NCBI GenBank assembly: GCA_003166335.1
Contig: PMWA01000032.1
Location: forward strand, 1-23,282
DNA length: 23,282 bases
Reading direction: 5' to 3'
Source: Methanobacterium sp.
GTDB lineage: Archaea; Methanobacteriota; Methanobacteria; Methanobacteriales; Methanobacteriaceae
Part shown: in pieces, positions 2,358-22,773 of the stretch
Numbering within the stretch: position 1 is the stretch's first letter
Layout of the letters: each line of letters begins with the position of its first letter
Notes under the pieces: model-generated
Seen by the model: only the letters and a program-made list of their open reading frames with translations
What the model was told of the DNA's origin: nothing
The model's database searches: none
Position numbers and translations under genes: made by a program

Positions 2358-2573
2358 ATCACAGACGAGTTTAAAGAATTAACAGAAACTGTTTTAGATG
2401 CTTATAAAACAAAACCTGAAAAAATAAGCTTAATAACTAAAATCAAATGTTTACTGAACCGACATGTTTGGGAATATCACAGAGACACCCAAGGAAACAC
2501 ATATCGAATGTGTATTTATTGCAACAAAATAGAAGAGAATATTTGGACTCCCAATTGGGGCGATTATGTATGA
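2358..2573 (+). CDS. Phage-type Zn-binding small protein (C-x4-H...CxxC; DUF1660-like) with an apparent ATC start
   Basis: GGAGGT at 2346-2351 is followed after 6 nt by ATC. An in-frame TAA at 2340 leaves no upstream ATG. The translation contains KCLLNRHVW...RMCIYCNK, and the stop overlaps the next ATG (ATGA at 2570). Confidence 0.65.
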   Translation: MTDEFKELTETVLDAYKTKPEKISLITKIKCLLNRHVWEYHRDTQGNTYRMCIYCNKIEENIWTPNWGDYV

Positions 2574-2785
2574 TTTTCGCAAATAAAATGGAAACTGTAC
2601 AAATACAAATTGAAGAAAAAGGGGAAAACTGGATACTCTATATTAATAAGACTGTAAATGAGTTTAAACGTGAATTACAGAATTATAAGGATGATATTTT
2701 AATGGGGAATTGTAAGAAGTTTAGAATTATGGATTTTATTGAATATTTAAGGAAGAATGGCTATGATGTCATGTTCATGCAATAA
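2570..2785 (+). CDS. 71-aa hypothetical protein
   Basis: 3' part of ORF 2447..2785; the ATGA overlap with the upstream gene favours a start at 2570. Confidence 0.6.
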   Translation: MIFANKMETVQIQIEEKGENWILYINKTVNEFKRELQNYKDDILMGNCKKFRIMDFIEYLRKNGYDVMFMQ

Positions 2786-2787
2786 AC

Positions 2788-2809
2788 GAAACTTTTAAGG
2801 AAAAGTTTC
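2788..2809. repeat. Perfect 9-bp hairpin GAAACTTTT-aagg-AAAAGTTTC
   Basis: Inverted repeat seen directly between the small ORF and the lysis genes. Confidence 0.6.
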
Positions 2810-2830
2810 ATCAAAAAAAGGTGAAAGTAA

Positions 2831-3547
2831 ATGGTAACTTATAGACCTGTTTGGATCGCATCAGACATTATTTATAATGCTGAAACTGATGCAAAGAATA
2901 TTGAACTAATTGTGAATGGACTAAAAGTTAGAGGAATAAAGGCTAATGGATATCCAAATACCGGAGCTGATTCACATATTAACGTTTTAAGTGATGCGAA
3001 TGTAGAATCAAATGCTCTAATAGTGGATGTTTATGGTGGAATGGATCCGGGATGTATATATGAGAAGGCAAATGGCTGGTATAAACGAACATTAGGGGAA
3101 CGAAAAGATTCTATAGTTTATATTTTCAGCCACAGTACGATGCCACTGATAACTAATAGATTATGGTTGGCACGGGATAAAACAGATAATTATGACAAAG
3201 AATGGTTTACAGGTATAGCCCACCCAGATGAATACTTAGAAAGTAATGATGTGGGTTATATTGAACATGTAACAATACCTGCTGATTTAGCTGCTATTGT
3301 TGAATTTATTGCTGAACAGGCTGCTTTGGTGCCAATTTCATTAGATGAAACCCAAGTTCAAGAGGGAATAGGTCGAGTAAACACGTTTTATAATAAATAT
3401 AATAGGATTCCAAAAACGATAAGTTTCCCGAATGAAGTTTTATCATTTACTGATTTTACTAGATTAATTGACTATTATGGTTTGAATTACAATTTCCTAC
3501 AATACGGTATGACCAGTGTAATAACCGAACCAGCTACCGGGGTATAA
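2831..3547 (+). CDS. Pseudomurein-binding-repeat protein with an N-terminal alpha/beta domain (lysis-associated)
   Basis: GGTGA RBS. The C-terminal motif RVNTFYNKYNRIPKTISF resembles the PMB repeats of the next gene. The N-terminal SD.I...ALIVDVYGG...WL.R..DN...F.G.A.PD.YL pattern is recalled from Methanobacteriales cell-wall proteins. Confidence 0.65.
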   Translation: MVTYRPVWIASDIIYNAETDAKNIELIVNGLKVRGIKANGYPNTGADSHINVLSDANVESNALIVDVYGGMDPGCIYEKANGWYKRTLGERKDSIVYIFSHSTMPLITNRLWLARDKTDNYDKEWFTGIAHPDEYLESNDVGYIEHVTIPADLAAIVEFIAEQAALVPISLDETQVQEGIGRVNTFYNKYNRIPKTISFPNEVLSFTDFTRLIDYYGLNYNFLQYGMTSVITEPATGV

Positions 3548-3550
3548 GGA

Positions 3551-5089
3551 ATGACTGTAATCAACTGTTTAATTTATAACGGTAGCCATGCAGCTCAAGA
3601 TGATGTTCAAGGTACCATAAACGCTTTGAATACGCCAGATTTTAAAGTCAATTTATCGGGAACTATAGATGCAAAATCATTAACAAGTGATATAAATGTT
3701 TTATTGATACCTGGTGGGGATGGAGGATTAACATATTTACAATGTGGTGATTTTAATGAAAAGGATATCCAGGATTTCATATATAATGGTGGAGCAGGAT
3801 ATTTTGTTTGCGCTGCCAGTTATGTTGCCGCTAAACAAGCGGTAGGGGTTAAAAATTATGTAGGTTGGGGTGTTGCACCTACTGTAATAGCCAACGGATT
3901 AACCGACAATGAACCCAACGGACTGCTCATTAAGGTTTTAAATATATTAGGAATCAGTGGATTATTCACTATAAATCATTTCCAGGGACCGTTCTTTACA
4001 GATCCAACCAATACTATGACCGTTTTCGCGACTTTTGCAGATAACCAAACAGGACATGAAGGAGCAGCTGCTATTGTTGGAGAAAAATATGGTAAAGGAT
4101 ATTCTGTTTTAAGTAGTGTTCACCCTGAAAATAAAGAATCAACTTATACTTTAGTTCAGAATTTAGTTAAACTAGCTAATAATGGAGGTAATAGTGTGAC
4201 AAGTTTTGTAATACAAGATTTAGAGGATGCTGGAAGTAGGGTAAAAAGTTGGATTGAAACTAATAAAAAGTTACCTGCTTATGTGGCAATTAAGGGATTA
4301 AATGTTCTAATGCCTGATTATTTGTATTTAATGACTGGTTTACTCGTTACAGGAACTACAATAAATACAATGGCAGTTAAAACTCCGATAGCAACAACTG
4401 AAAACTTCAAGGCTGGAACTCTAACCAAAGCAGATTATGAAAACATGGCTTTGAGAATTAAAAATTATATCGAAAAATATGGACAAGCACCCGCCTATGC
4501 ATCAACATCATTAGGTAATATGCCATTTGAAGATTTGATTTATAATTTCAGTCGAATATGGGCTGTTGCAATACCAGCATCTATAAGCTGTACTCCTTTA
4601 TCTGCTCCAATTATTTCAGCAGGATATTGGGAGCAATTAGAAAAAGGAACCGGAAAAACATTTAACAATTTAACAGCCCTTACACTTGCAGTGGAAAAAT
4701 ACTGTACATACAATGGTTATTTCAATAATCAAAAAACATTCCCTCAAGAGCTACAATCATTAGAAGATGATATGAATGGAAAGGATAATGGAATAGTTGA
4801 TGAGGATAACTGTGTAGACTTTGCGGAATGTTGTACAAAACTTGCCCGTGAAAAAGGTTATGGTGCTACCTTATATGGTGTTTATTGTCCTGTAGAACAG
4901 ATAAACCATGCAGTAGTGCATGTAACTGGTGGAGAGTTTGTTAATAATACATGTGTGATTAATGGACAAACTTTATCAGGTATTATTATAGACTGGGCTA
5001 AATTAGCTAGTGATGGAGGAGCTATTGGAACATTTTGGTGTGATATTAACCAGGCAACTGAAAATCCGTCATGGCTTCCCTATGAATAA
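3551..5089 (+). CDS. pei: Pseudomurein endoisopeptidase (peptidase C71, PeiW/PeiP-like) with PMB repeats, fused to an N-terminal BPL_N/class I glutamine amidotransferase-like domain
   Basis: N-terminus: LIYNG, LLIPGG, IQDFIYNGG, nucleophile elbow C87, HPE (H191/E193). Middle: PMB-like repeats RVKSWIETNKKLPAYV and RIKNYIEKYGQAPAYA. C-terminus: NCVD (C421), H453, D481, WC...NP.W. Confidence 0.8.
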   Translation: MTVINCLIYNGSHAAQDDVQGTINALNTPDFKVNLSGTIDAKSLTSDINVLLIPGGDGGLTYLQCGDFNEKDIQDFIYNGGAGYFVCAASYVAAKQAVGVKNYVGWGVAPTVIANGLTDNEPNGLLIKVLNILGISGLFTINHFQGPFFTDPTNTMTVFATFADNQTGHEGAAAIVGEKYGKGYSVLSSVHPENKESTYTLVQNLVKLANNGGNSVTSFVIQDLEDAGSRVKSWIETNKKLPAYVAIKGLNVLMPDYLYLMTGLLVTGTTINTMAVKTPIATTENFKAGTLTKADYENMALRIKNYIEKYGQAPAYASTSLGNMPFEDLIYNFSRIWAVAIPASISCTPLSAPIISAGYWEQLEKGTGKTFNNLTALTLAVEKYCTYNGYFNNQKTFPQELQSLEDDMNGKDNGIVDEDNCVDFAECCTKLAREKGYGATLYGVYCPVEQINHAVVHVTGGEFVNNTCVINGQTLSGIIIDWAKLASDGGAIGTFWCDINQATENPSWLPYE

Positions 5090-5213
5090 AATTTTACTTT
5101 TTTTGGAGGTTATGAAATTTATGAAATCACATCCAAGTGTAAAACATCCATATAAAAAAACTAAAAAGTTCTATAATTAGTTTTTATTTCTTTAAACATT
5201 GGATTATTTTTTG

Positions 5214-6833
5214 TCAATCTTTTGTAATGGTAAGATTGTCTATGTTGATATTTGTGTTATTTCCGATTTCAGAATAATAGATATTGTATCCATCCGAAAA
5301 TGTTATTGTTTCTACATTGATTTGAGATTGCAACTCCTGTAAATAATTGAAATTATCGGTTGCGCCAAAATTAGAATTATCAGTTACCATCCATATTATA
5401 TATTTTGTTGATGAATTTAGAATAATTTGATTATTCTGAGGATTAATATCGGTGCTTTTATGATTTTTATAATATATAATAGATTGATTTGTTTTTCCAG
5501 ATACGTTGTATCGGAGGTTAGTTAAAGATTCATAATTAGTGTAATAGTACATATATTTTCTCCAATCATCTTCATTTGTGAAAAAAATCAATGTATCGTT
5601 TGGATTAAAGTCGTTTAATGATTCGATAAAATATTGTGTAGTTAAATCTTTTGATTGTATATTCCCATAATCGATTCCTTTAGGATTAGGTGAAAGTGAA
5701 GTAAATTGTGTGATACTAAAAAATACACATAAAACAAGTAATAATATTATTAAATAATTTGAAGGGATCCCTTTAATTTTTTTATTCAAATTTGAAGAAA
5801 AATTAACAATTACATAACTAATTACCAGGACAAAGACTGGTACATAAATTAAAGTATAACCAGGTTTTGGTATATAGATTAAGAAATAAAAAAGGAAGGA
5901 AGGAAATATCCATAATATTAAAAAGATTGCCTTGCTATTTCTGAGGATAGATAAAGTGAATTTATTAAAATTTAAGGCAATGTAAATTGATAAAATAAAA
6001 ATACTTAAAATACCTATTCCATCTAAAGTCCAACTTAATAAAGTATAATCCATCATCAACTGACTTTGGAGGTTTGCACCAAAAAATATTGATGAACCTC
6101 CAAATGCAATCAGCCAAACTTTTTTAGTAACTTGGGAATAATTTAGATAACCTCCAGATAAAAGTATGGTGGGAATATACCAAAAGAGTGCAAATTCAAT
6201 TAGAACAATAAAGGATTTAAAAATCTTTTTATAATCAAAACCCTGATAAATTAGACAGAAGAACCATAATGGAAACATTAAGAATATAAGATCTGATCTA
6301 AAACCTCCAGATAAACCTAGAGCAATAGCTGATATATAAATAAATCGATTATCACCCTTTAACATTTGATATGAGGTATAAGCTATTAAAGTTGCAAATA
6401 AAGCTTCACCCATATAGATTGTGGAAGTTTCTCCATAAAACCAGAAAATAGGATTAAAAATAAGCAATACGGACGCAATAATGGCTATTTTTCTTGAAAA
6501 CATCTGTTTTGCCAGGAAATAAACCAAGAAAACTGTTAAAATACTGAAAACGATACTGATAAATACCATTGAAGTGTTAGGATCATTAAAAACAATGTTA
6601 ACAATCCTTCCCAAAGCTATAAAGAGGATATAGCCTGGTGGTTGTGGTTGATCTAAGTAAATATTAAAATTCTGGAATGCTAATGCATAACTAACAGCAT
6701 CTCCATCATACAAAAATTTACTTGCAAAAGGGATTCTAATTAAAAGAATCATAAAAAATAAGATAAATAGAATTACAAGGTCAAATCTTTTTGTTAAAAA
6801 ATTCCTCAACTTACCAATATTAATATTCCTCAT
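5214..6833 (-). CDS. GT-C fold membrane glycosyltransferase (PMT/ArnT, GT39/83-like)
   Basis: 539 aa with many TM segments; DGDAVSY and QPPGYIL in loop 1; LVYFLAKQMFSRKIAIIASVLLIFNP; soluble C-terminal domain. Confidence 0.8.
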   Translation of the reverse strand: MRNINIGKLRNFLTKRFDLVILFILFFMILLIRIPFASKFLYDGDAVSYALAFQNFNIYLDQPQPPGYILFIALGRIVNIVFNDPNTSMVFISIVFSILTVFLVYFLAKQMFSRKIAIIASVLLIFNPIFWFYGETSTIYMGEALFATLIAYTSYQMLKGDNRFIYISAIALGLSGGFRSDLIFLMFPLWFFCLIYQGFDYKKIFKSFIVLIEFALFWYIPTILLSGGYLNYSQVTKKVWLIAFGGSSIFFGANLQSQLMMDYTLLSWTLDGIGILSIFILSIYIALNFNKFTLSILRNSKAIFLILWIFPSFLFYFLIYIPKPGYTLIYVPVFVLVISYVIVNFSSNLNKKIKGIPSNYLIILLLVLCVFFSITQFTSLSPNPKGIDYGNIQSKDLTTQYFIESLNDFNPNDTLIFFTNEDDWRKYMYYYTNYESLTNLRYNVSGKTNQSIIYYKNHKSTDINPQNNQIILNSSTKYIIWMVTDNSNFGATDNFNYLQELQSQINVETITFSDGYNIYYSEIGNNTNINIDNLTITKD

Positions 6834-7340: not shown

Positions 7341-8221
7341 ACCGAGAAAAAGCCGGGAATTCGGCTAATAAAAATGCCATTATTGGAAATATAATTCTCA
7401 CAATTCTTAATTTTGTTATAGGATCCTTAGCAGGATCCACAGCACTTGTCGCAGAAGCTGCCAACAACTTAGGAGATTGCCTCTCCACAGCCATATCATG
7501 GTTTGCCTTTAGGATTGGAAACCGAAAACCTGATGAAGAACATCCATATGGTTACGGAAGAATTGAACCGTTGATGAGTATTTTCATTGCATTATTACTG
7601 TTTTATGTAAGTTATGGAATTTTAACGGATGCTTATTCAAAGTTTATTACAGTTGGATCCTTGACAGCACCGAATTGGATAAGTGCAGTTATGGCGTTAA
7701 TTGCAGCGGTTATATGTTTTTATATGTCCAAAAACTTAACCAAAACAGGAATTAAAATTAACAGTCAACTGCTCATAGCTCAAGGTAATGAAAAAATGAC
7801 GGATGTATATGTAAGCATAACTATCTTTTGTGGTATTGTAGGAGCACACCTCGGATATCCTATTTTGGATCCAATACTCGCAGTAGTGATCGCAGCATTA
7901 GTTATTAAAGTTGGATTTGAAATGTTCCTGGAGAATATTGAGAACCTCCTGGGACATGTGCCTAAAGGTTTAACGGATAAAATTATGAAAGTTGCCTTAA
8001 GCGTTAATGAAGTTCGAGATGTAAGGAATCTTAAAATAAATACAGTTGGTCCAACCAATAGCTGTGAATTAGATCTCATATTAAATGATGAATCTAGCTT
8101 TGATGATGTATACGAAATCAGTAATAAAGTTGAAAGTGAGATAGTACGTTCTATTAATTTTATTAGCAGTGCATCTATTCATGTTGTGCCTGACACTAAG
8201 ATTATAACTGATGATTTTTAG
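7337..8221 (+). CDS. Cation diffusion facilitator (FieF/YiiP-like) metal efflux transporter
   Basis: GSTALVAEAANNLGD, KPDEEHPYGYGRIE, LDPILAVVIA, about six TM segments, and a C-terminal ZT_dimer-like domain ending in IHVVP; AGGAGA RBS. Confidence 0.92.
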   Translation: MNREKAGNSANKNAIIGNIILTILNFVIGSLAGSTALVAEAANNLGDCLSTAISWFAFRIGNRKPDEEHPYGYGRIEPLMSIFIALLLFYVSYGILTDAYSKFITVGSLTAPNWISAVMALIAAVICFYMSKNLTKTGIKINSQLLIAQGNEKMTDVYVSITIFCGIVGAHLGYPILDPILAVVIAALVIKVGFEMFLENIENLLGHVPKGLTDKIMKVALSVNEVRDVRNLKINTVGPTNSCELDLILNDESSFDDVYEISNKVESEIVRSINFISSASIHVVPDTKIITDDF

Positions 8222-8837
8222 CATTTTTATAAGTTAAATGAGCTTCTTCTTCATCCTCAAATAAGCCTAAATGTTTTTGTTTCCCATTTAGAAAAATATA
8301 TGCTCTCCATTTTTGAAGATTTTTATGCCATGAAACACCTTTATATTTACTAGTTTTTGGGAGTGATAATGTTGAAATTTCATTACCTTTTTTAATTTCA
8401 TTACAAGCCCAATCATAAGCTTTGGCTGCTTCTTTCTCGTTATCAAATGTTCCTAAATACTTCTTTTTTCTACTTATTTTTATTTGAGCAACCCATCTTC
8501 CAGTCCTATCGTCTAAAATAACACCAGGATATCTTGATCTTATAGGAATATGCAAATTTTGACTGTTTTCTCTAGGAGTAACTACCTTTAAATTTGATCT
8601 ACAATTATTTAATCCATTACCATCAATATGATCAATTTGCATATCTTTAGGTGGATCCATTATTAAACGATGCATCCAAATAAATGGATATTCATCTTTA
8701 ATAGGAGATACTCTACGGACATAATAACTTTTTCTTCTAGTTTTAATTGCATGCCATTTCCACTGGTTTAACCATTCATAATACTCATCATCAACTAAAG
8801 CAAATTGATTCTGTGTTAATTCAATCTTTTTAACCAT
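8202..8837 (-). CDS. HNH homing endonuclease with two AP2 DNA-binding domains
   Basis: ALVDDE, MHRLIM, IDHIDGNGLNNCRSNL...N, then two AP2 repeats (SRYPGV..W.AQI..KYLGTF..EAAKAY and SKYKGV.W..W.A.I..KHLGLF). Confidence 0.92.
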   Translation of the reverse strand: MVKKIELTQNQFALVDDEYYEWLNQWKWHAIKTRRKSYYVRRVSPIKDEYPFIWMHRLIMDPPKDMQIDHIDGNGLNNCRSNLKVVTPRENSQNLHIPIRSRYPGVILDDRTGRWVAQIKISRKKKYLGTFDNEKEAAKAYDWACNEIKKGNEISTLSLPKTSKYKGVSWHKNLQKWRAYIFLNGKQKHLGLFEDEEEAHLTYKNAKNHQL

Positions 8838-15095: not shown

Positions 15096-16409
15096 TTATC
15101 TAGATATTTTTCTAGCAAAAACATAGACAAATAATGCAGTAAAAATACTCAATAAACTTGATCCTACAGCAATGATAAGATTATTATTCGGATTTGAAAA
15201 CACTGAAGCTATATAAATTATCCATGAAACTAGAAAAATAAAGAATATGTAACCTAAATTTTCGCCATATCCCGTACCGTAATGTAAAATATTGTAAAGA
15301 ATCCATGATATCCACTTTTCTTCTTCCCGATAAACTTCTTTATTCATGTTCATTTCTTTAACATAAAATTTTCCTGCTTTATCGTATGCTCCCTCTTGTT
15401 GCAAACTTTGTCTTATCCTTCTATAAGTATCTGCAACCGTTCTAGCATCTAATCTGGCTTTTAAGTAAGCTCTATATTCTGGAATTATATTATTTTCCCA
15501 TTTTGATGTTGATAATTCACAGTTTTCAAATATAACATTCTGAAATTTAACGTTGGAGAGATCACAATTTCTAAAACAAGTATTTTTAAGTCTTGCACCC
15601 TCAAATGATAAACCATATTTATTGATTCCTTCAAAAATCCCTGAACTTTTGAAAGACGAATCTACGAACCCCGTTTCTACTTTTACTTCTATATCAGGAA
15701 AATATGAATCCCCGAAAAGTTTAATCCTGTTAAAGTTATTGTATATACAGATATCTGGATTTAAATTAAACTTAGCTCTATTAAAATATGCATCACCTAA
15801 AATTTTTGTACCATCAAATTTAGCTTCACCACCAACTCTTGCATCAATAAGCATAAATTTACCTTCAATATTAGCTCCGATAAAATTTATATAATTACCT
15901 ATCTCAGCATGATTGAAGTCAACATTCTTTTTAACAATTATATGACCGAAATCAGCTATTTTTATCTTTTTTGAATAAGAAAAATTCAATTCACCATCAA
16001 TTTCTGCATTATTAAAATAAACATCACCATTAATGGTAGTCCATGAAAAATTGACATGACCACATATTTTTGACTGGCTAAATCTGACTTCACCATAAAT
16101 AACAGAGCCTCCAAAATTCACATCCCCGTGGATATGCGCCTTCCTACAATTTAACATTAAAATAGGTTGTTGATAAAAATCAATTCCTTCCAGAATTGCA
16201 CCTTCAAAATTAAAATCACCCTTAGCAGCTTTTTCTTTTAATTTTTTTTCTTTTTCAACACTTAATTCTTTATATTCAATAGAATCCTTATTTCTAGGAA
16301 AATCTACATGTAATACACAATAATCCGAGCCAAGCCAAACTTCTTTACCACATTCAAAGTCTCTCTCAATCCCTACACAATTGTATTTACAACTTTTCAT
16401 GTTCATCAT
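15096..16409 (-). CDS. Pentapeptide-repeat protein with C-terminal membrane helices
   Basis: Many F..A.I.G repeats, an N-terminal C..C..CVLH motif, a YRRIRQ..AGKFY.KEM helix, then GYGE and two TM segments. Confidence 0.8.
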   Translation of the reverse strand: MMNMKSCKYNCVGIERDFECGKEVWLGSDYCVLHVDFPRNKDSIEYKELSVEKEKKLKEKAAKGDFNFEGAILEGIDFYQQPILMLNCRKAHIHGDVNFGGSVIYGEVRFSQSKICGHVNFSWTTINGDVYFNNAEIDGELNFSYSKKIKIADFGHIIVKKNVDFNHAEIGNYINFIGANIEGKFMLIDARVGGEAKFDGTKILGDAYFNRAKFNLNPDICIYNNFNRIKLFGDSYFPDIEVKVETGFVDSSFKSSGIFEGINKYGLSFEGARLKNTCFRNCDLSNVKFQNVIFENCELSTSKWENNIIPEYRAYLKARLDARTVADTYRRIRQSLQQEGAYDKAGKFYVKEMNMNKEVYREEEKWISWILYNILHYGTGYGENLGYIFFIFLVSWIIYIASVFSNPNNNLIIAVGSSLLSIFTALFVYVFARKISR

Positions 16410-16417
16410 GTTAATTC

Positions 16418-16547
16418 AGAAGTAAATGGTTTTTGATCTGATATTAAAATATTTAATTAACAATTCATGTATTCTATTATAATTTACTGGGATGCCCCTT
16501 TATTTTGAAGCCATTTAATGATGTCTTCTAGATCTTGTATAATCCAT
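16418..16547 (-). pseudogene. 5' remnant of a paralog of the 296-aa gene
   Basis: Frameshifted MD..DLEDII..GF.I.GIPVNYNRIHELLIKYFNIRSKTI, compared with MDLNKDLEDIILDGFRIRGVQVNYTGIHELLIKYFNFISKTI in the intact gene. Confidence 0.8.
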
Positions 16548-16645
16548 TATTTCTCATTAAATTCAAATTTTCTTCAATAACTGAATTTCTTCTTCAGTTA
16601 ATTCGTAGAGCTCATAAACCATTCTGTCAATCTCTGCATCAGTTT
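16431..16645. repeat. Diverged direct repeat, copy 2
   Basis: Matches copy 1 at an offset of 2870 bp. Confidence 0.9.
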
Positions 16646-19600
16646 CTTTTATTTGCTGGAGCAATGGATTAATTTTATTTATGCTTTCTTCGAATTCCTT
16701 TTCAAGAAGTTCTTGAGTTTTTCTTTTTGTAGTATCTACTTTTTTCTTGTTTAATTCAGCTAAGAAGTCACCAAAATATAATTCATAATATTTATCGAGT
16801 TTTTGTGAGAAATTTTCAACATGATAAGTACGTTGTAACCAGTCTTTAAATCCATTAATTTCAGCTACTAAACCTTTATTAAGAAAGAGCATTTTATCAG
16901 CTTTTTCAATATATGGTTTTTGTTTAATGTCCTCTATTAGTTTAATTGGGAGCCGTTCAACATATTTCTTGTTTAAATCAAAACGTTTACCTTCTAATGT
17001 ACTTCCTAAAAATTTAAATATAAAATTTAAGGTTTTTGAAGAAGTAAAACTCCTAAATATTTGAGGTTAATAGTATCCGAAGTTATAATGTAACATTTTT
17101 GATTAGTATAAAATCCACTATCATCAAAAGCAACAAATAATTTCGGCGCTATATTTGGGTAAATTAGCTTTTCTTTTTCAAATTCAGCATAATAATCAGA
17201 AGCATATCTACTTAAAGCAAACCAATCAACACGACCCGCTTTTACTTCAGGTCGTTTTTCAAGATTAGATTTAAATTTAGATAGATGATCTTTAATTGAT
17301 ATATATTCATCAATCGGAAATCTCCATGGAATATACAGGATATATAAATCTTTATAATTTATTTCCCATTTTTTAATATCCCTACCTCTTAAAAGAGACT
17401 TTATAACATCTTTACTTTTAGGATCTTTTTTTATTAGTTCATTTCTTACTTTTCCATCAATTACAAATGCATCATTATAACCACTTAGTAAACCTCTATA
17501 AAACCCTAAACCAGAAATATCTTTTATAAAAGAAGAATTAGCATTGATTTTATCTCTTAAATCAAGAACTTCAGGTCTTTCAAAACTCCAAGAAGTAACA
17601 TCTAATCTATTTTGCTCTAATTCAAAATCATTATCCACTAAAATATTATTATCATTGTTAAATCCATTTTTAATTATAAATACTGATGAATGAACAGTAG
17701 CTCCTTCAAACACTTTATCCCAAGTATGATCAACATATCGCTCAAAAGAAGTACCAGTCATGATTAATTCACGTAAATTTTTACCATAATTAGACTTTAT
17801 AAACTTATTAGAAGAAATATAACCTAATTTACCATCATTTTTAGTATTTGAAAACCTTTTTCAAAGAAATAAACATATAGATCAGCAACACCAGTATAAG
17901 TTTTATAGTGTTCCTTCAGATACGGTTTTATCTCTTTAATCTTCTCTTGCCGTACATAAGGTGGATTTCCAATCACTACATCAAATCCACCTTCCTTGAA
18001 AATTCCTGAGAATTCTTTTTCCCATTTGAATGCTTTGTCTCCAGCATATTCTGGGTAATCGATAAGTGAATTTCCACATTTTATGTTGTTATCCAAGTTA
18101 GGTAATTTTAATCCTTTTTTACATACTTTTAAGAAGAGTGATAGTTTAGTTATTTCCACTGATTCTTCGTTTAAGTCAACTCCGAAGATATTTTGAAGTA
18201 GGATTTCTCGTCTTTTTTCGATGGCATCAAAAACAATTACCCCTAAGTCAAAGTGTTTAATAGATTCTATTTTTCTTCTCTTTCCTTTACCAACTTTAAT
18301 ATCTGTGGTAGTTGTGTAACCCATCTTAAAATCATATATTGCATTATGGATTTCTAATAGAACATCGGCGGCTTTATTTAGGAAAGCACCGGATCCACAT
18401 GCAGGATCTACTATTCTTATTTTTTCAAGTTTTTTATCTAACTTTTCGAGTTCAGTAGGGGACCATGAATATTCTCCAATCAATTCATCAACAGTATTAG
18501 AATTTCCAGATTTACTTAAATAAGGGATAATAGTATTCCTGCAAATGTAATCGGTTATATACTGCGGCGTATAGAAAATTCCTTCTTTTTTCCTTCGACC
18601 TTTAACATCTGCTTTGAGTACTTCCAGGTCTCCAATAGAATTCTCAAAGATGTGACCTAGAATGTTAACATCTAGTTCTGACGAAAAGTCAAAAGATGAA
18701 ATAATCAGTAAATTCTTATAAATAGGATTTACTTTATTGGCATGAGGTACCAGCATTTCATTAATACTTGACTCATATTCTTCAAAATTCCATTCCTGCC
18801 ATGCATCTTTAAAGATTTCTTTATCAATTACTATGTCACGGATTTTGATGAAATCTAAATCCTCCTCAAATAAGCCACCATTATAAGCTGAAATATGTTT
18901 AAACTCGTTTCCTTCATTAATGTCTTCGAATAGTTCATTTAAACGTTGCCAAATACTATTATGTCTTAAGTTTCCCTGTCTTATAGGAGTAATGATTGTA
19001 TTCGAAGAAATTTGACCAATAAGTAAACCAGCGTCTTCAGCAAACGAAATGAACATGTATCTGTTAAGAATTAATTGAGCATAATGAACAGCATCAACCC
19101 TATTAAAATCATTAAATTCCTCTAATTCCTTTATCAGCATCATCCGAGTTTCATGAAATAATTTATAAAAATTATTTTCTAACTGCCTTTCAATTACTAA
19201 AGTTTCTTCAAGTAATTTCACAGGATACTCATTATTTATGTATGATTCTTTAGAAAATGCAAGCATAAAATAACAGAACTTCTCACTATCAAACAAATCC
19301 TCATAATTAAAACAAATCCACTTATCACTCTTCTTACCATAATTATACAGTCTAAATTCCTTAAAATTCGAAACAAAAATCCAATCAATATCACCAGTAT
19401 GTTGCGCATAATCAAAAGCCTGATCCACAGGAGTTCTCTTATCATTGAATCTATGCTGGGGTTTATCCAGATCCGATGTTTGGTCCTTGAGCTCAATGAC
19501 CATAAATTTTTTATCACCAGACTTCAATGCAAACTCGCTTTTACCCCTTCCAGTGCCCTCTTTCTCACTAAACAGGATATTCTTTTCACGGTCATATCCA

Positions 19601-19779
19601 AGGATCTCTTTTAGAAAATCATAAAAATAAAGATAATTGCTCTCTTCGGATTTAAAATCTCCATTTTCAAACATTTCCGTGTGTTTCTTAATGAACCCAT
19701 GTTTAGATATTGTTAATTTAAATGCCTTATTCTGGGCATATTTTTTCATCAGGGCCTGGTTGAAAAGATTATTTTTCAT
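16563..19779 (-). pseudogene. Type IIG (Eco57I-like) fused restriction-modification enzyme, frameshifted
   Basis: N-terminal nuclease (SEFALK..IELK, Q..DYA), DPACGSGAFL (motif I), NPPY (motif IV) and a TaqI_C-like TRD. Split into ORFs 17824..19779, 17027..17761 and 16563..16892 by single-base losses at ~17840 and ~17042. Confidence 0.88.
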
Positions 19780-19870
19780 GGATGATCTTAATGTTTAAGT
19801 CTTAGAATTTAATAATTAGTTTATGTTTTTCAGTTGAATACAATTCTGATAATTTTGCTTTGTATGTATA

Positions 19871-21472
19871 TTATTCAAATTTAAGTTTTTCTAAATAGTT
19901 ATAAAGATCGTCGACTGATTTGAAATCATATTCATCTCCAAGTTTAATAAGTTTAAAAATTACTTCTTGGACAACGATAGATAAATCAATCATATCATTT
20001 ACTGATACAAAAACATCTCCATTATGTACAATTTGACTTCTTATCTCGTAAAGTTCTTTTAAACCCTTAAAATAATTTATTCTATCTTCATATTTATCAG
20101 CTAAAAGAAAAGCAGTTCGTTCCGCTAATTTATCGGTTATTGATTCATTTTTTTTAACTAATACTGATTCCAATGCATTAGATAACTTAAGAAATTTATC
20201 ACCAAACTTAAAATATCCTAAGTTTTCATGCTTTTTAGCCCTTCTTTCAAAAATTTCTTCATTTTCTTTTTTTATATTTAGTTTAGTATTACAAGATTCT
20301 CCAAACCAGTAAATTGATGTCAACAAACTATCTTGAAAATTATTTTTATTAGGATTTATTAATATATTATCTAAGATATTAAAACCCCAATTAGACATGA
20401 GATTTAGCCTATCTTTGTCTATTTTAAAATTAGGCAATGGGCCAAGAATTTCGTAAGGTATTCTCATCCGATTGTTGTTATATCCAATTAAAATTCTAGA
20501 ACTTTGTGAAATAATTTCTCCTTTTATTCCAAAATAATCATCCTCTAGATAACTATAAAGTTTGATAACATTTATTGCTAATCTGATTTTACTTAAAGCT
20601 AATTGCTTCGCACTTTCAAATACACCCTTTACTTTTGTTATTGCTACAATATCTTCATCTTTTATTTTTTCCACATCTTTTACTGCATTATTATAAGTTT
20701 CAGGTTTTTCTTTATCGGTTATAGATTCATTTTCAAAAATAAGTTTGTGAAGTACATTTTTAATCTCATCCTTAATTTCTCCATAATTACAAAACGACAC
20801 AGTACCTATTTCCAAAGAATCATCTAAAGATAAATGCTGTATAGGAGCTACAAATGTCCATTCTTGTTTTTCACTTAAAAAAGAAGATTTTAAATTCTTT
20901 AATTTTTTATCAATAAAAACATCCCTCTTATCTTCTTCCAAACCCATAGCTTCAGATAAAACAAGATATAATTCGTTTTCAATTACATTTTTTATGATAT
21001 TAAATTTTATATAATCATCATTCCTTAATTCATCTATAGCTTTATTAAGTTCAGCATATCCTTTAGAACTTAATAAAACTACAATTTTGGTCTTTTTTGA
21101 CCAAAATAAATTCCCACGTTCTTCTAAATTTCTTTGGTATTCTGAGTTATTACATATTTTTAATAAAGAAATTTTAACTTTTTCTAAGTCTGCTCCAGGG
21201 ACTGTCAATAGCCAGCCACAGTTTTTTAAATAATTAACTGTTTCATTAATTTCGTTCAAAGCGTCAGTAGATACATCTTTTATCAGAAATTTGCCTGTAA
21301 TCACCTTTTTTGAAGAATCATGACCCAATATGAATTTTAAGTTATTCAATTCTTTTTTTATCAATTCTAATTCTATTTTATCATCATAAACTGCTTTTAT
21401 TTCAATAATACCAGTATATTTCCGTTTTTTTGGAATTTTATAATCTACTGAAATAATTTCTTTTTCTACCAT
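19871..21472 (-). CDS. ApeA-like HEPN-domain protein (putative anti-viral RNase)
   Basis: C-terminal LSNALESVL...LAERTAFLL...LYEIRSQIVHNG (R-x4-H); ATG at 21472 follows GGGTG. Confidence 0.8.
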   Translation of the reverse strand: MVEKEIISVDYKIPKKRKYTGIIEIKAVYDDKIELELIKKELNNLKFILGHDSSKKVITGKFLIKDVSTDALNEINETVNYLKNCGWLLTVPGADLEKVKISLLKICNNSEYQRNLEERGNLFWSKKTKIVVLLSSKGYAELNKAIDELRNDDYIKFNIIKNVIENELYLVLSEAMGLEEDKRDVFIDKKLKNLKSSFLSEKQEWTFVAPIQHLSLDDSLEIGTVSFCNYGEIKDEIKNVLHKLIFENESITDKEKPETYNNAVKDVEKIKDEDIVAITKVKGVFESAKQLALSKIRLAINVIKLYSYLEDDYFGIKGEIISQSSRILIGYNNNRMRIPYEILGPLPNFKIDKDRLNLMSNWGFNILDNILINPNKNNFQDSLLTSIYWFGESCNTKLNIKKENEEIFERRAKKHENLGYFKFGDKFLKLSNALESVLVKKNESITDKLAERTAFLLADKYEDRINYFKGLKELYEIRSQIVHNGDVFVSVNDMIDLSIVVQEVIFKLIKLGDEYDFKSVDDLYNYLEKLKFE

Positions 21473-21690
21473 TCTTACACCCAATTAACTAAATTTAGAT
21501 CAAAAAACCTTTATGTATTAAAGTAAACATTTGGAATTTTTCTAAAATGTTGGATATTGTAATATAATAGTGAATTTAGTAATAAATTTTATAATTCCTG
21601 TATTATAAAATTAGGCTAAAATCGCAATCTTTTCAGGTTGGTTGCATTTAACAAATAAAAAAAAACATTAATTTTTAATTTAAATTAGTC

Positions 21691-22773
21691 TTAAATATAA
21701 TGTTTCGCGGTGCTTTTTAGCTTTTCTGAGTGTTTATAAATGTCATTAAGATTATCTATGGTTACTTTTTCCTCTATTTTAGCACCACTTGCGCGTTTCT
21801 CTTGATTATCGAAGAATCCTACAGATTTTAGTTTTCGTGATTTAAAATGCATTCTACATAAAACTTTGTATTTATTATCATCAAGGAGAACACTACAATA
21901 ATTATGCCTGTTACGAATGAATACTCTCGCCGGGTCAATTAATTCACTGAGGATAGCTTTGGCAATATAATATCCTTCCCATTCTTCTTCAGTCGTGATG
22001 ATTTCACTTTTATCTCTTTTAAAATCAATGTCTTCTGTAGTTTTTTCTTCAGCGTTTTCGGAAGCTAATGCTTTTTCTAATCTCTCATCGACTCTATCCT
22101 TAATGAATTCATTTAATGCCGACTTGGTGATTTGAGCAAATTGAGTCTTGGCATTCTTAGTTAATGGACTAGAATATACTTTTTTAGCAAAAAATCTTAC
22201 AAAATCATCTGATGGATCTTTAAGTTGTTCTGCTAATATTTTTTTCATTTCATTTTTGTATTTTAACTCGCTAGCGGATGCTAAAATGTTTTCCAGGTCA
22301 AATGATGATTTTGTAAACTGTTTAAGCTCTTTTTTATCCGTATCTGTAACATTTCTTAAATCAATCTCAAAGAATGGTTTTTGGTCCATTTTGTTTGGTT
22401 CATCAATATCTGTATAAAATCTAAAAATAATTCCATTAGTTAAAATTCCAAACTTTGCTTCAGTAACAGAAAAATATCTATATAGTTGAGATGCATGTTC
22501 TTTATCCAGGTCGGTTTTTGTTGTCTTACATTCAATCAGTATGATGGGTTTGCCCTCACTCATAATAGCATAATCTACTTTTTCCCCTTGTTTAATTCCA
22601 ACATCTGCAGTGAACTCAGGAACAACTTCTGCAGGGTCAGTATGGTCATATCCCAAAACAAGCCTTATAAAAGGAAGTATAAAAGCAGTTTTTGTAGCTT
22701 CTTCAGTTTTTACCAGGTCTGATTTTTCAGATATTTTAAATGTAAGTTTATCAATTTCTTCTGACATCCCCAT
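21691..22773 (-). CDS. HsdR_N-like PD-(D/E)xK restriction endonuclease (COG4748-like)
   Basis: TEEATK..FILPF..LGYD, EVVPEF.ADVG.K.GEKVDYAI, IECK, QLYRYF, ILTNG. Confidence 0.85.
   Translation of the reverse strand: MGMSEEIDKLTFKISEKSDLVKTEEATKTAFILPFIRLVLGYDHTDPAEVVPEFTADVGIKQGEKVDYAIMSEGKPIILIECKTTKTDLDKEHASQLYRYFSVTEAKFGILTNGIIFRFYTDIDEPNKMDQKPFFEIDLRNVTDTDKKELKQFTKSSFDLENILASASELKYKNEMKKILAEQLKDPSDDFVRFFAKKVYSSPLTKNAKTQFAQITKSALNEFIKDRVDERLEKALASENAEEKTTEDIDFKRDKSEIITTEEEWEGYYIAKAILSELIDPARVFIRNRHNYCSVLLDDNKYKVLCRMHFKSRKLKSVGFFDNQEKRASGAKIEEKVTIDNLNDIYKHSEKLKSTAKHYI

Follow-up and report, generated by a model that had tools for sequence, protein, structure and literature searches.

The window analysed here is a 23,282-nt stretch of Methanobacterium sp. 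DNA (assembly GCA_003166335.1, contig PMWA01000032.1, positions 1–23,282 of the forward strand). It contains a lysin ORF of 512 codons that is the final gene in the late module of a tailed provirus. In the genome carrying a 90%-identical homolog (G063), the TerS, TerL, portal, protease, adaptor, tape-measure and tail genes all lie upstream of the lysin, and the best explanation of the window gene is that it encodes the endolysin of a tailed provirus in peat Methanobacteriaceae. The full-length start is probably translationally coupled to the upstream gene at 2831–3547, because the stop codon of that gene lies only 4 nt before ATG3551; in G063 and in a related provirus, G100, the lysin likewise follows this gene end. 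The features of the locus are the following:

2831–3547, forward strand: upstream gene of 238 aa with a weak C-terminal stretch resembling a pseudomurein-binding repeat (PMBR)
3551–5089, forward strand: full-length lysin ORF, 512 codons, stop included in the coordinates, no internal stop
3551–4180, forward strand: N-terminal class I glutamine-amidotransferase-like (GATase-like, BPL_N) domain, residues 1–210, without a signal peptide
3809–3811, 4121–4123 and 4127–4129, forward strand: putative N-domain triad, Cys87, His191 and Glu193
4150–4207, forward strand: 58-nt run identical to the G063 homolog (90% amino acid identity), spanning the SD-like site and the GTG
4181–4201, forward strand: interdomain linker, residues 211–217, N-G-G-N-S-V-T
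4184–4189, forward strand: SD-like hexamer GGAGGT (codons Gly212-Gly213)
4190–4195, forward strand: spacer AATAGT, 6 nt
4196–4198, forward strand: candidate internal start GTG (Val216), 7 nt after the GGAGG core
4196–5089, forward strand: predicted short isoform of 297 aa, PMBR region plus C71-like peptidase, collinear with PeiP
4202–4591, forward strand: PMBR region, residues 218–347
4622–5086, forward strand: C-terminal cysteine-peptidase domain, divergent C71 (PeiW/PeiP-like), residues 358–512
4811–4813, 4907–4909 and 4991–4993, forward strand: candidate C71-like triad, Cys421, His453 and Asp481

The domain boundaries were drawn from Pfam matches and an AlphaFold model of the 512-aa lysin (mean pLDDT 92.1). 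The N-domain matches PF09825 (BPL_N; 44.2 bits against a cutoff of 24.2, E = 1.5e-11) and resembles Pdx2/YaaE, HisH and GatD in Foldseek (TM (target) 0.67–0.80, with 0.78–0.79 for Pdx2/YaaE 2nv2). C87, H191, P192 and E193 do not vary among the 15 leaderless homologs compared, the G100 relative reads H-W-E at the His-x-Glu position, and dN/dS for the domain is 0.11 against the G063 homolog. A helix (196–210) closes the N-domain in the model, followed by a coil (211–217) and a strand (218–220) that opens the PMBR part; pLDDT falls to 80 in the block 211–220. PMBR matches cover two stretches (Pfam, E = 2.3e-13), and the model shows two helix-strand repeat units. The original prediction had placed an internal start exactly at the boundary between the GATase-like domain and the pseudomurein-binding repeats, and the modelled linker together with the BPL_N and PMBR matches confirms this position.

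The C-terminal domain aligns structurally with the PeiW catalytic domain (Foldseek to 8jx4_A: E = 5.7e-7, TM (target) 0.70, rmsd 3.6, 158 columns). Its sequence is divergent: phmmer against 8jx4_A gives E = 0.47, PHROG 37889 gives E = 0.0035, and the C71 profile PF12386 does not match the window lysin (P0001) even at E up to 1, whereas two homologs pass its cutoff of 22 (P0021 at 36.5 bits and P0159 at 23.4 bits). Cys421, His453 and Asp481 are candidates for a Cys-His-Asp triad, which we take to be the catalytic triad of C71; they correspond, by sequence alignment only, to the ‘NCVD’, ‘H’ and ‘D’ columns in the consensus of a 38-row alignment, and C421 also aligns with the ‘NCTD’ cysteine of PeiW in the marginal phmmer match. 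The top Foldseek match of the lysin is full-length PeiP (8z4f_A, E = 1.4e-11), with 306 columns against a 300-residue chain, in agreement with the earlier claim that a product begun at the internal site would be the size of PeiW or PeiP.

The site itself reads as had been described: GGAGGT at 4184–4189 is followed after 6 nt by a GTG at 4196 that is in frame ((4196 − 3551)/3 = 215, making it codon 216), and translation from there yields 297 aa. Judged by their lengths, the 512- and 297-residue proteins would have masses of about 56 and 33 kDa. The ORF was checked for a stop codon before 4196 and is open throughout 3551–5089. We calculated an SD duplex energy of −10.7 kcal/mol at this site against −6.4 at the annotated start, with an assumed anti-SD sequence (the 3′ end of the 16S rRNA was not found in the assembly). 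This is stronger than at 93% of longest-ORF starts in the genome and the best value among the 17 in-frame start-capable codons of the gene (runner-up, −6.0). The spacing between GGAGG and the start codon at ORF starts in this genome peaks at 6–10 nt. Scored with a fixed-position start-site matrix, the site falls at the 28th percentile of chosen starts and is equalled by 5.8% of internal decoys, the matrix being a poor discriminator. Local mRNA folding is unremarkable (MFE −9.2; mean over the gene, −7.6), and the unpaired probability, at the 84th percentile, does not make the site unusually open. Upstream of 4184, an AT-rich TTATAC near 4144 was considered by eye as an internal archaeal promoter candidate.

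Homologs were compared in two forms, free-standing and fused to the N-domain. Two free-standing proteins begin close to the candidate start: P0021 (288 aa), which is 39% identical over residues 224–512 of the window lysin, starts at the equivalent of residue 217, and P0058 (325 aa) starts at the equivalent of residue 213. A second fused lysin, P0159 from the G100 provirus, matches PF12386; its overall identity is 25%, and its wall-binding module is of another kind. Its junction DNA reads GAA GGA GGT AAT AAT TTG, so that GGAGGT is followed after 6 nt by an in-frame TTG; this is the sole GGAGG of that gene and its best internal SD (−11.4). Conservation of GGAGGT in fused homologs, an expectation of the original prediction, is thus seen in two of two independent fused lineages whose DNA was compared (window/G063 and G100), each with 6 nt before an in-frame start-capable codon. 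For more distant fused homologs, the only records come from Logan, ENA or a 1-kb JGI contig, and these were compared as protein.

Relatives were sought in several further collections. Across 314 family genomes, the C-terminal domain occurs in six, and only in G000 and G063 is it part of a fusion. A search of the family genomes with the N-domain of the G100 lysin found host paralogs and nothing else besides the query itself. Viral contig scans returned no relative or only 25% matches, genome contig scans only G063 and two unrelated bacterial loci, and tblastn against GenBank phages no match. The one metagenome scan recovered only near-identical copies (L039 at 98%, L040 at 99%, and L041 covering residues 1–193), and repeating the word-based protein search with a 15-row profile added nothing to the three proteins of the first.

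At the protein level, we asked how often the junction carries a footprint of such a site, using a pattern that was defined after the data had been seen: (GG or EV)-x(1-3)-M, or GG-x-x-V. Of 16 leaderless homologs, which include three close kin (P0001, P0004 and P0123), 7 carry the footprint, against none of 31 leader-bearing host paralogs; in the other 9 leaderless homologs it is absent or unclear. Gly-Gly stands at the junction of 8 of the 16 against 1 of the 31, and a methionine anywhere in the 24-residue junction window in 7 of 16 against 7 of 31, which is no clear difference. Each of the three deep clades in the N-domain tree, which are separated by more than 2 substitutions per site, contains carriers. 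In host paralogs that combine the same two domains, the aligned position is occupied by neither a hydrophobic residue nor Met, and GGAGG was found in the junction zone of none of the 27 whose DNA was compared (best SD there, −3.9).

The 58-nt identical run across the site is the second-longest in the gene in comparison with the G063 homolog (scan permutation p = 0.003) and falls within a stretch of low dS. In this stretch, codons 167–220, dS is 0.072 against 1.22, 0.45 and 0.59 in the other parts of the gene. The gene is mosaic between strains, L041 differing from the window at 43 sites in 3551–3750 and at only 16 in 3751–4129, and because of this mosaicism the low-dS stretch may be a recombination tract.

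From these comparisons, we consider it fairly probable that the internal start is functional and that one gene gives both a two-enzyme lysin of 512 aa and a PeiP-like lysin of 297 aa. The start has probably been retained and is probably working, because free-standing homologs begin there, P0159 has the same kind of site and the footprint spans three clades. On the late mRNA, some ribosomes would start at ATG3551 through coupling with the upstream gene and make the 512-aa protein; GGAGGT, doubling as the codons of linker residues Gly212-Gly213, would recruit others to GTG4196 for the 297-aa protein, which would be a complete PeiP-like lysin. The N-domain may be a second wall-cleaving activity, possibly with gamma-glutamyl bonds of pseudomurein as its target. 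With GTG and TTG as weak start codons, the short form would be made at a lower dose. The anatomy behind the original claim of one gene and two lysins is supported by Pfam, the model and Foldseek, and the homologs add comparative support; the two products themselves we infer. A broader proposal is tentative and rather doubtful: leaderless GATase-like/Pei lysins of methanogen viruses might be two enzymes per gene in general, with the N-domain an unrecognised pseudomurein hydrolase related to a large family of host surface proteins and a selected RBS-start linker giving each infected cell a two-headed lysin and a PeiP-like short form, perhaps as a mixed oligomer. Archaea would then have their first internal-start lysin system, whether it arose independently of those of bacteriophages or in parallel with them.

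The same letters could in principle be a coincidence, with Gly-Gly as an ordinary flexible linker, Val, Leu or Met as an ordinary first residue of the next module, and an incidental likeness to an RBS. As a background, we counted in-frame deep-internal sites in this genome, taking 1706 crude ORFs with a minimum length of 150 aa. GGAGG followed after 5–10 nt by an in-frame ATG, GTG or TTG occurs 82 times in 74 of the 1706 ORFs, and GGAGGT with 4–9 nt before a start 20 times in 18 of them. Among the 14,762 start-capable codons that lie internally and in frame, 113, spread over 102 of the 1706 ORFs, have an SD duplex as low as −10.7. GGA and GGT are also the commonest two Gly codons (41.7% and 39.2%), and the G063 homolog has another equally strong internal site at codon 60, in a PGGDGG motif; this site and the equals in 102 ORFs mean that chance sites exist, and the motif by itself is within chance expectation. 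Nevertheless, 391,943 internal codons contain the exact form GGA-GGT plus two codons plus a start just 5 times, the 4184 site included, and yet it stands in the linker of both independent lineages. Host paralogs with the same two domains lack both the GGAGG and the hydrophobic or Met residue, and free-standing homologs begin at the equivalent of the junction. In these sequence comparisons, the linker position and the recurrence in relatives exceed chance. A chance origin is therefore unlikely in context, given the best internal site in the gene, the homolog starts, the second fused lysin, the footprint and the 58 identical bases, and we regard coincidence as improbable.

The other alternative is that the RBS and start persist as the scar of a module junction, where a PeiP-like cassette that was once a free-standing lysin gene, or keeps being exchanged with one, was joined to the N-domain, with little or no short product made or needed; the site would then have survived either because the fusions are young or because the conserved junction is used as a recombination site. 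Modules are indeed exchanged precisely at this point: as far as ‘...NGG’, P0004 and P0123 have the same N-domain (70% and 74% identity), and beyond it they continue into another kind of wall-binding module and a peptidase of the C39 type. Identity of the window lysin’s PeiP-like part to free-standing P0021 (39%) exceeds that of the full protein to fused P0011 (34%), strains are mosaic within the lysin gene, related proviruses have different lysin cassettes behind the same upstream gene, and 9 of 16 leaderless homologs show no clear footprint. Against this, no unfused leaderless GATase-like gene was found among the 150 best of 643 matches or in the 314 family genomes, which makes a fresh fusion unlikely. 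BPL_N-only open frames were considered as the unfused state and rejected, being membrane-anchored host genes of about 280 aa. An unselected linker should also have decayed across three clades more than 2 substitutions per site apart, and GGA-GGT is kept in two lineages although the genome under-uses this pair (observed/expected 0.64; 10.6% of Gly-Gly pairs, with a background of 31% for GGA-GGN). Moreover, a strong SD 7 nt from a start codon would be expected to initiate, ‘meant’ or otherwise. The relic RBS of a recent fusion, which the original prediction had offered as its alternative, is thus weakened as to recency, and junction shuffling and strain mosaicism continue to speak for it; a scar in either variant seems to us somewhat unlikely, and we favour a retained and probably working start.

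A working start would have counterparts in bacteriophages. PMC9430671 reports internal starts predicted in about half of Gram-positive phage endolysins, with four of four tested being confirmed. As described in PMC9430671 and PMC12203907, the endolysins of staphylococcal phi2638A, mycobacteriophage Ms6 (LysA/Pollywog) and streptococcal Javan488 have, like the window lysin, an internal RBS and start at a domain boundary of one ORF, placed directly after the first catalytic domain. Their short form retains wall binding and the second catalytic domain, as the predicted short form does here. Unlike that type, the window lysin has an archaeal pseudomurein host, unrelated domains (GATase-like, PMBR and C71), a wall-binding module between two catalytic domains and a GTG start (TTG in the relative), and its two products are predicted. 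CTP1L, Lys170 and CD27L share the internal start in the lysin linker (PMC4777826), which in them precedes the wall-binding domain, but their short product is the binding domain alone, which joins the full-length enzyme in hetero-oligomers, whereas a complete enzyme is predicted here. Our literature search found no report of an internal-start lysin in an archaeal virus, or of a glutamine-amidotransferase-like domain joined to Pei-type lysins.

Among methanogen viruses, close counterparts are PeiP and PeiW of the Methanothermobacter phages psiM2 and psiM100. Residues 216–512 match the PeiP fold (8z4f_A) end to end, and PMB repeats before a cysteine peptidase are common to both, although sequence likeness is marginal (the phmmer and PF12386 results above) and PeiP and PeiW (chain lengths 300 and 148–150) lack the GATase-like domain. 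C71 pseudomurein endoisopeptidases cleave the Ala-epsilon-Lys isopeptide bond of pseudomurein (PMC4592898). The leaderless N-domain is also joined to a C39-type peptidase, as in PeiR-like Methanobrevibacter virus endolysins, in the relatives P0004, P0112, P0072 and P0123, unlike the C71-like domain of the window lysin; both classes are known in methanogen viruses (PMC11375127). If the favoured reading is true, SD-driven internal initiation would be seen to tune lysin dose and composition in Archaea too, and the host surface-protein family that shares the N-domain would become a candidate for pseudomurein remodelling. Methanogen lysins such as PeiR serve as methanogen-lysing tools and methane-mitigation candidates (PMC6189367); under the same reading, a short active form with defined limits and one more candidate catalytic domain would become available for such work. 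Were the site only a scar, it would still mark the exact joint of lysin-module exchange in these viruses.

The two halves of the gene, as well as the junction (X15, 4023–4224; X16, 4067–4228), are represented in contigs from four peat RNA-library runs; being contigs, they are silent on transcript ends and translation starts, and DNA carry-over is possible. They contain no variant at 4023–4287, and the same contigs vary on both sides of this interval.

The window, the opening 23.3 kb of contig C17 in a genome of 2.49 Mb (99.4% complete, 32% G+C), contains the lysin gene, an open reading frame at 3551..5089 (+) that encodes 512 aa with no stop inside. Pfam detects a BPL_N domain, which is class I glutamine-amidotransferase (GATase)-like (E = 1.5e-11), two pseudomurein-binding repeats (PMBRs; E = 2.3e-13) and no C71 domain, and an NCBIfam search gave no match. 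An AlphaFold model from a 38-row alignment (mean pLDDT 92.1) divides the protein as follows.

Domain layout of the lysin in the AlphaFold model
Residues up to helix 196-210: N-domain
Residues 211-217: interdomain coil, a 7-residue linker
Residues 218-347: PMBR region
Residues ~352-355: second linker, ill-defined
Residues 358-512: C-domain

The top PDB match by Foldseek was full-length PeiP (8z4f_A; E = 1.4e-11, 306 alignment columns for a 300-residue chain), followed by the PeiW catalytic domain (8jx4_A; TM on target 0.70), and the N-domain resembled Pdx2/YaaE, HisH and GatD glutaminases (TM on target 0.67-0.80). Because P0021, a free-standing homolog, is 39% identical across residues 224-512 and scores above the C71 profile cutoff, we classify the C-domain as a divergent C71 relative. 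Cys87, His191 and Glu193 are unchanged in 15/15 homologs that are leaderless (without signal peptide), and the N-domain is under purifying selection (dN/dS 0.11 against the copy in G063, another genome of the family), which together argue that the long form is made and that its N-domain is probably an enzyme.

The sequence features behind the original prediction of an internal start in this gene are confirmed: GGAGGT at 4184-4189 is followed by AATAGT and an in-frame GTG at 4196 (codon 216). The site does fall between the GATase-like domain and the PMBRs, within the 7-residue linker of the model, and initiation there would give, on translation, the expected 297-aa product, near the size of PeiP (chain of 300 residues). 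Since the 16S 3' end is absent from the genome assembly, all duplex energies rest on an anti-Shine-Dalgarno (anti-SD) sequence that we assume to apply. On that assumption the internal SD reaches -10.7 kcal/mol versus -6.4 for the annotated start, beats 93% of longest-ORF starts and is well ahead of 16 other in-frame candidates in the gene (runner-up -6.0); the GGAGG-to-GTG spacing is 7 nt, and the genome's preferred range is 6-10 nt.

By itself, the site is no more than chance. Among 1706 crude ORFs of this genome (longest ORFs, at least 150 aa), 74 hold a total of 82 cases of an in-frame deep-internal GGAGG followed after 5-10 nt by a start. Of the 14,762 in-frame codons inside these ORFs that could serve as a start, 113 (in 102 ORFs) have an SD duplex that matches the -10.7 kcal/mol of the site under the assumed anti-SD. 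Pointing the other way, the GGA-GGT codon pair is under-used genome-wide (observed/expected 0.64), and its combination with two further codons and a start is found in 5 cases in 391,943 internal codons, the window site counted among them. At codon 60 of the G063 lysin (L009), a PGGDGG motif creates an extra strong SD-like site (GGTGATGGAGGA) just before an in-frame TTG, at which the window has TTA; Gly-rich motifs can give rise to such sites by chance.

Junction DNA was compared in two fused lineages (window/G063 and G100) and 27 host paralogs. The second lineage came from a search of all 314 genomes of the family for the C-terminal region of the homolog P0004, which yielded an additional fused lysin with DNA, P0159 (G100:C53, 443 aa). 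It is 25% identical to the window protein and combines BPL_N with another type of wall-binding module and a region matching PF12386. Its gene sits in a related provirus after the same upstream gene as the window lysin, and its junction reads GAA GGA GGT AAT AAT TTG, that is, GGAGGT, six bases and an in-frame TTG. This is the sole GGAGG in the gene and its best internal SD (-11.4, assumed anti-SD), and a free-standing relative in a further family genome (G152) starts about where the TTG product would. GGAGGT, 6 nt and an in-frame start-capable codon are therefore present at the junction in 2/2 independent fused lineages with DNA, versus no junction-zone GGAGG in any of the 27 host paralogs, whose best junction-zone SD before any in-frame start-capable codon is -3.9 (assumed anti-SD).

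An exhaustive, profile-free homolog search gave 643 proteins at E ≤0.001, and the 150 best hits were listed. In the free-standing lysins P0021 (288 aa) and P0058 (325 aa), which consist of PMBR and C-domain, the first residue aligns with residue 217 and residue 213, respectively, of the window protein. Sixteen leaderless N-domain fusions were retrieved, a count that takes in the fragment P0123 and the window protein itself and has three close kin among it; their downstream modules vary (PMBR or other wall-binding module; C71-like or C39-type peptidase). Many family genomes also encode host proteins that start with a signal or membrane leader and carry the same N-domain followed by PMBR or nothing. 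A junction pattern defined post hoc, (GG or EV)-x(1-3)-M or GG-x-x-V, is carried by 7/16 leaderless versus 0/31 host proteins, and junction Gly-Gly by 8/16 versus 1/31; Met anywhere within the 24-residue junction window shows no clear difference (7/16 versus 7/31). In an N-domain tree (quick search, long branches), pattern carriers are spread over all three deep clades and host proteins group separately, the label needing 2 changes (0/500 shuffles as low).

The GATase-like host surface proteins form a large family in the host and its relatives (G000:C20:6225-7277, L002; G000:C23:1940-2989, L003; L053; L054), matched by 81/314 family genomes at E ≤1e-8. In some, of ~440-670 aa, BPL_N and PMBR follow a signal or Thr/Asn-rich leader; others are membrane-anchored, BPL_N-only, ~280 aa long and end in 'WAANS'. 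Because the triad motifs are retained, these proteins may be unrecognised pseudomurein-remodelling enzymes. In P0104, P0144 and P0128 the C-domain of the window lysin is attached to N-terminal repeats that look, by eye, like bacterial peptidoglycan-binding (PG_binding_1-like) repeats, so the peptidase family may not be limited to pseudomurein hosts.

Over 512 codons, the window and G063 lysin genes differ synonymously in 121 and non-synonymously in 52; codons 167-220 contribute 2 and 4 of these, respectively. While dN is 0.05-0.10 across the whole gene, dS varies by region.

Synonymous divergence along the lysin gene, window versus G063
Codons 1-166: dS 1.22
Codons 167-220: dS 0.072
PMBR part: dS 0.45
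C-domain: dS 0.59

The low-dS stretch has p = 0.003 by scan permutation, and a 58-nt run identical to G063 (4150-4207), the second-longest in the gene, crosses the internal site. In the gene region, contigs of four peat RNA libraries vary at 40 positions, with 0 inside 4023-4287. Low dS, the identical run and the lack of variants around the site fit constraint on the nucleotides but are not clean evidence for it, because the lysin gene is mosaic between strains and a recombination tract is an alternative.

We consider it reasonably probable that the internal start works and that the gene yields both 512-aa and 297-aa PeiP-like lysins: the linker holds an SD-like hexamer, strong and suitably spaced, together with a start-capable codon, and both are kept in a second lineage and stand where free-standing lysins begin. 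The strongest competing reading is a junction scar at which initiation is negligible; modules have evidently been shuffled at this exact point, as P0004 and P0123 have a common N-domain up to 'NGG' and then diverge, and we regard this reading as unlikely though credible. Coincidence would suit the site taken by itself and appears quite improbable to us. With a working internal start, ribosomes would load at GGAGGT/GTG4196 on a late polycistronic mRNA and produce the 297-aa lysin alongside the 512-aa protein, the long form would contribute a second catalytic head, and GTG and TTG start codons would hold the short form at a lower level.

In a study of Gram-positive-phage endolysins, internal starts are predicted in about half and were confirmed in 4/4 tested (PMC9430671). 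One group there also has its internal start between two catalytic domains, of which the window lysin would be a predicted archaeal virus case; the main text does not contain the word 'archaea'. Methanogen viruses are described as carrying PeiW-like (C71) or PeiR-like (C39) lysins (PMC11375127; PMC9800368). Full-text literature searches of limited coverage yielded no account of an archaeal virus lysin with an internal start, nor of one bearing a BPL_N/GATase-like domain.

The 90%-identical lysin copy in G063 forms the end of a tailed-provirus late module with small and large terminase (phrog_979, E 3.9e-66), portal, protease, adaptor, tape measure and tail proteins, and the same 240-aa gene precedes the lysin in that provirus and in the window. 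Since homology to G063 stops ~25 nt past the lysin stop codon, the window is read as containing the right end of a provirus and then host genes. The upstream gene at 2831-3547 (+), 238 aa, stops 4 nt ahead of the lysin ATG, and its end is also found before the lysins of G063 and G100. Its product has a weak PMBR-like stretch (residues 180-199, E 0.0013, under cutoff) after an N-terminal ~170 aa without family match, and may act in the lysis module as an additional wall-directed protein.

Sixteen nt past the lysin stop there is a second GGAGGT (window 5105-5180), and the ATGs after it, at 5112 and 5121, lead into no more than a basic ORF of 19-22 aa; the matching GAGGT in G063 precedes a longer, different sequence, and inter-genome homology ends there. 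This segment probably marks either a cargo boundary or the right end of the provirus. Window 2400-5300 is present in peat and permafrost metagenome runs from 16 studies, and parts of it occur in contigs of 6 metatranscriptome libraries; the provirus thus has a wide distribution in peat, where it may also be transcribed, although library contigs cannot prove transcription. Further along, 8202-8837 (-) encodes an HNH and AP2-domain protein, with a similar HNH/AP2-like gene within the G063 provirus, and 15096-22773 (-) holds large ORFs that by eye resemble restriction-modification or defence genes.
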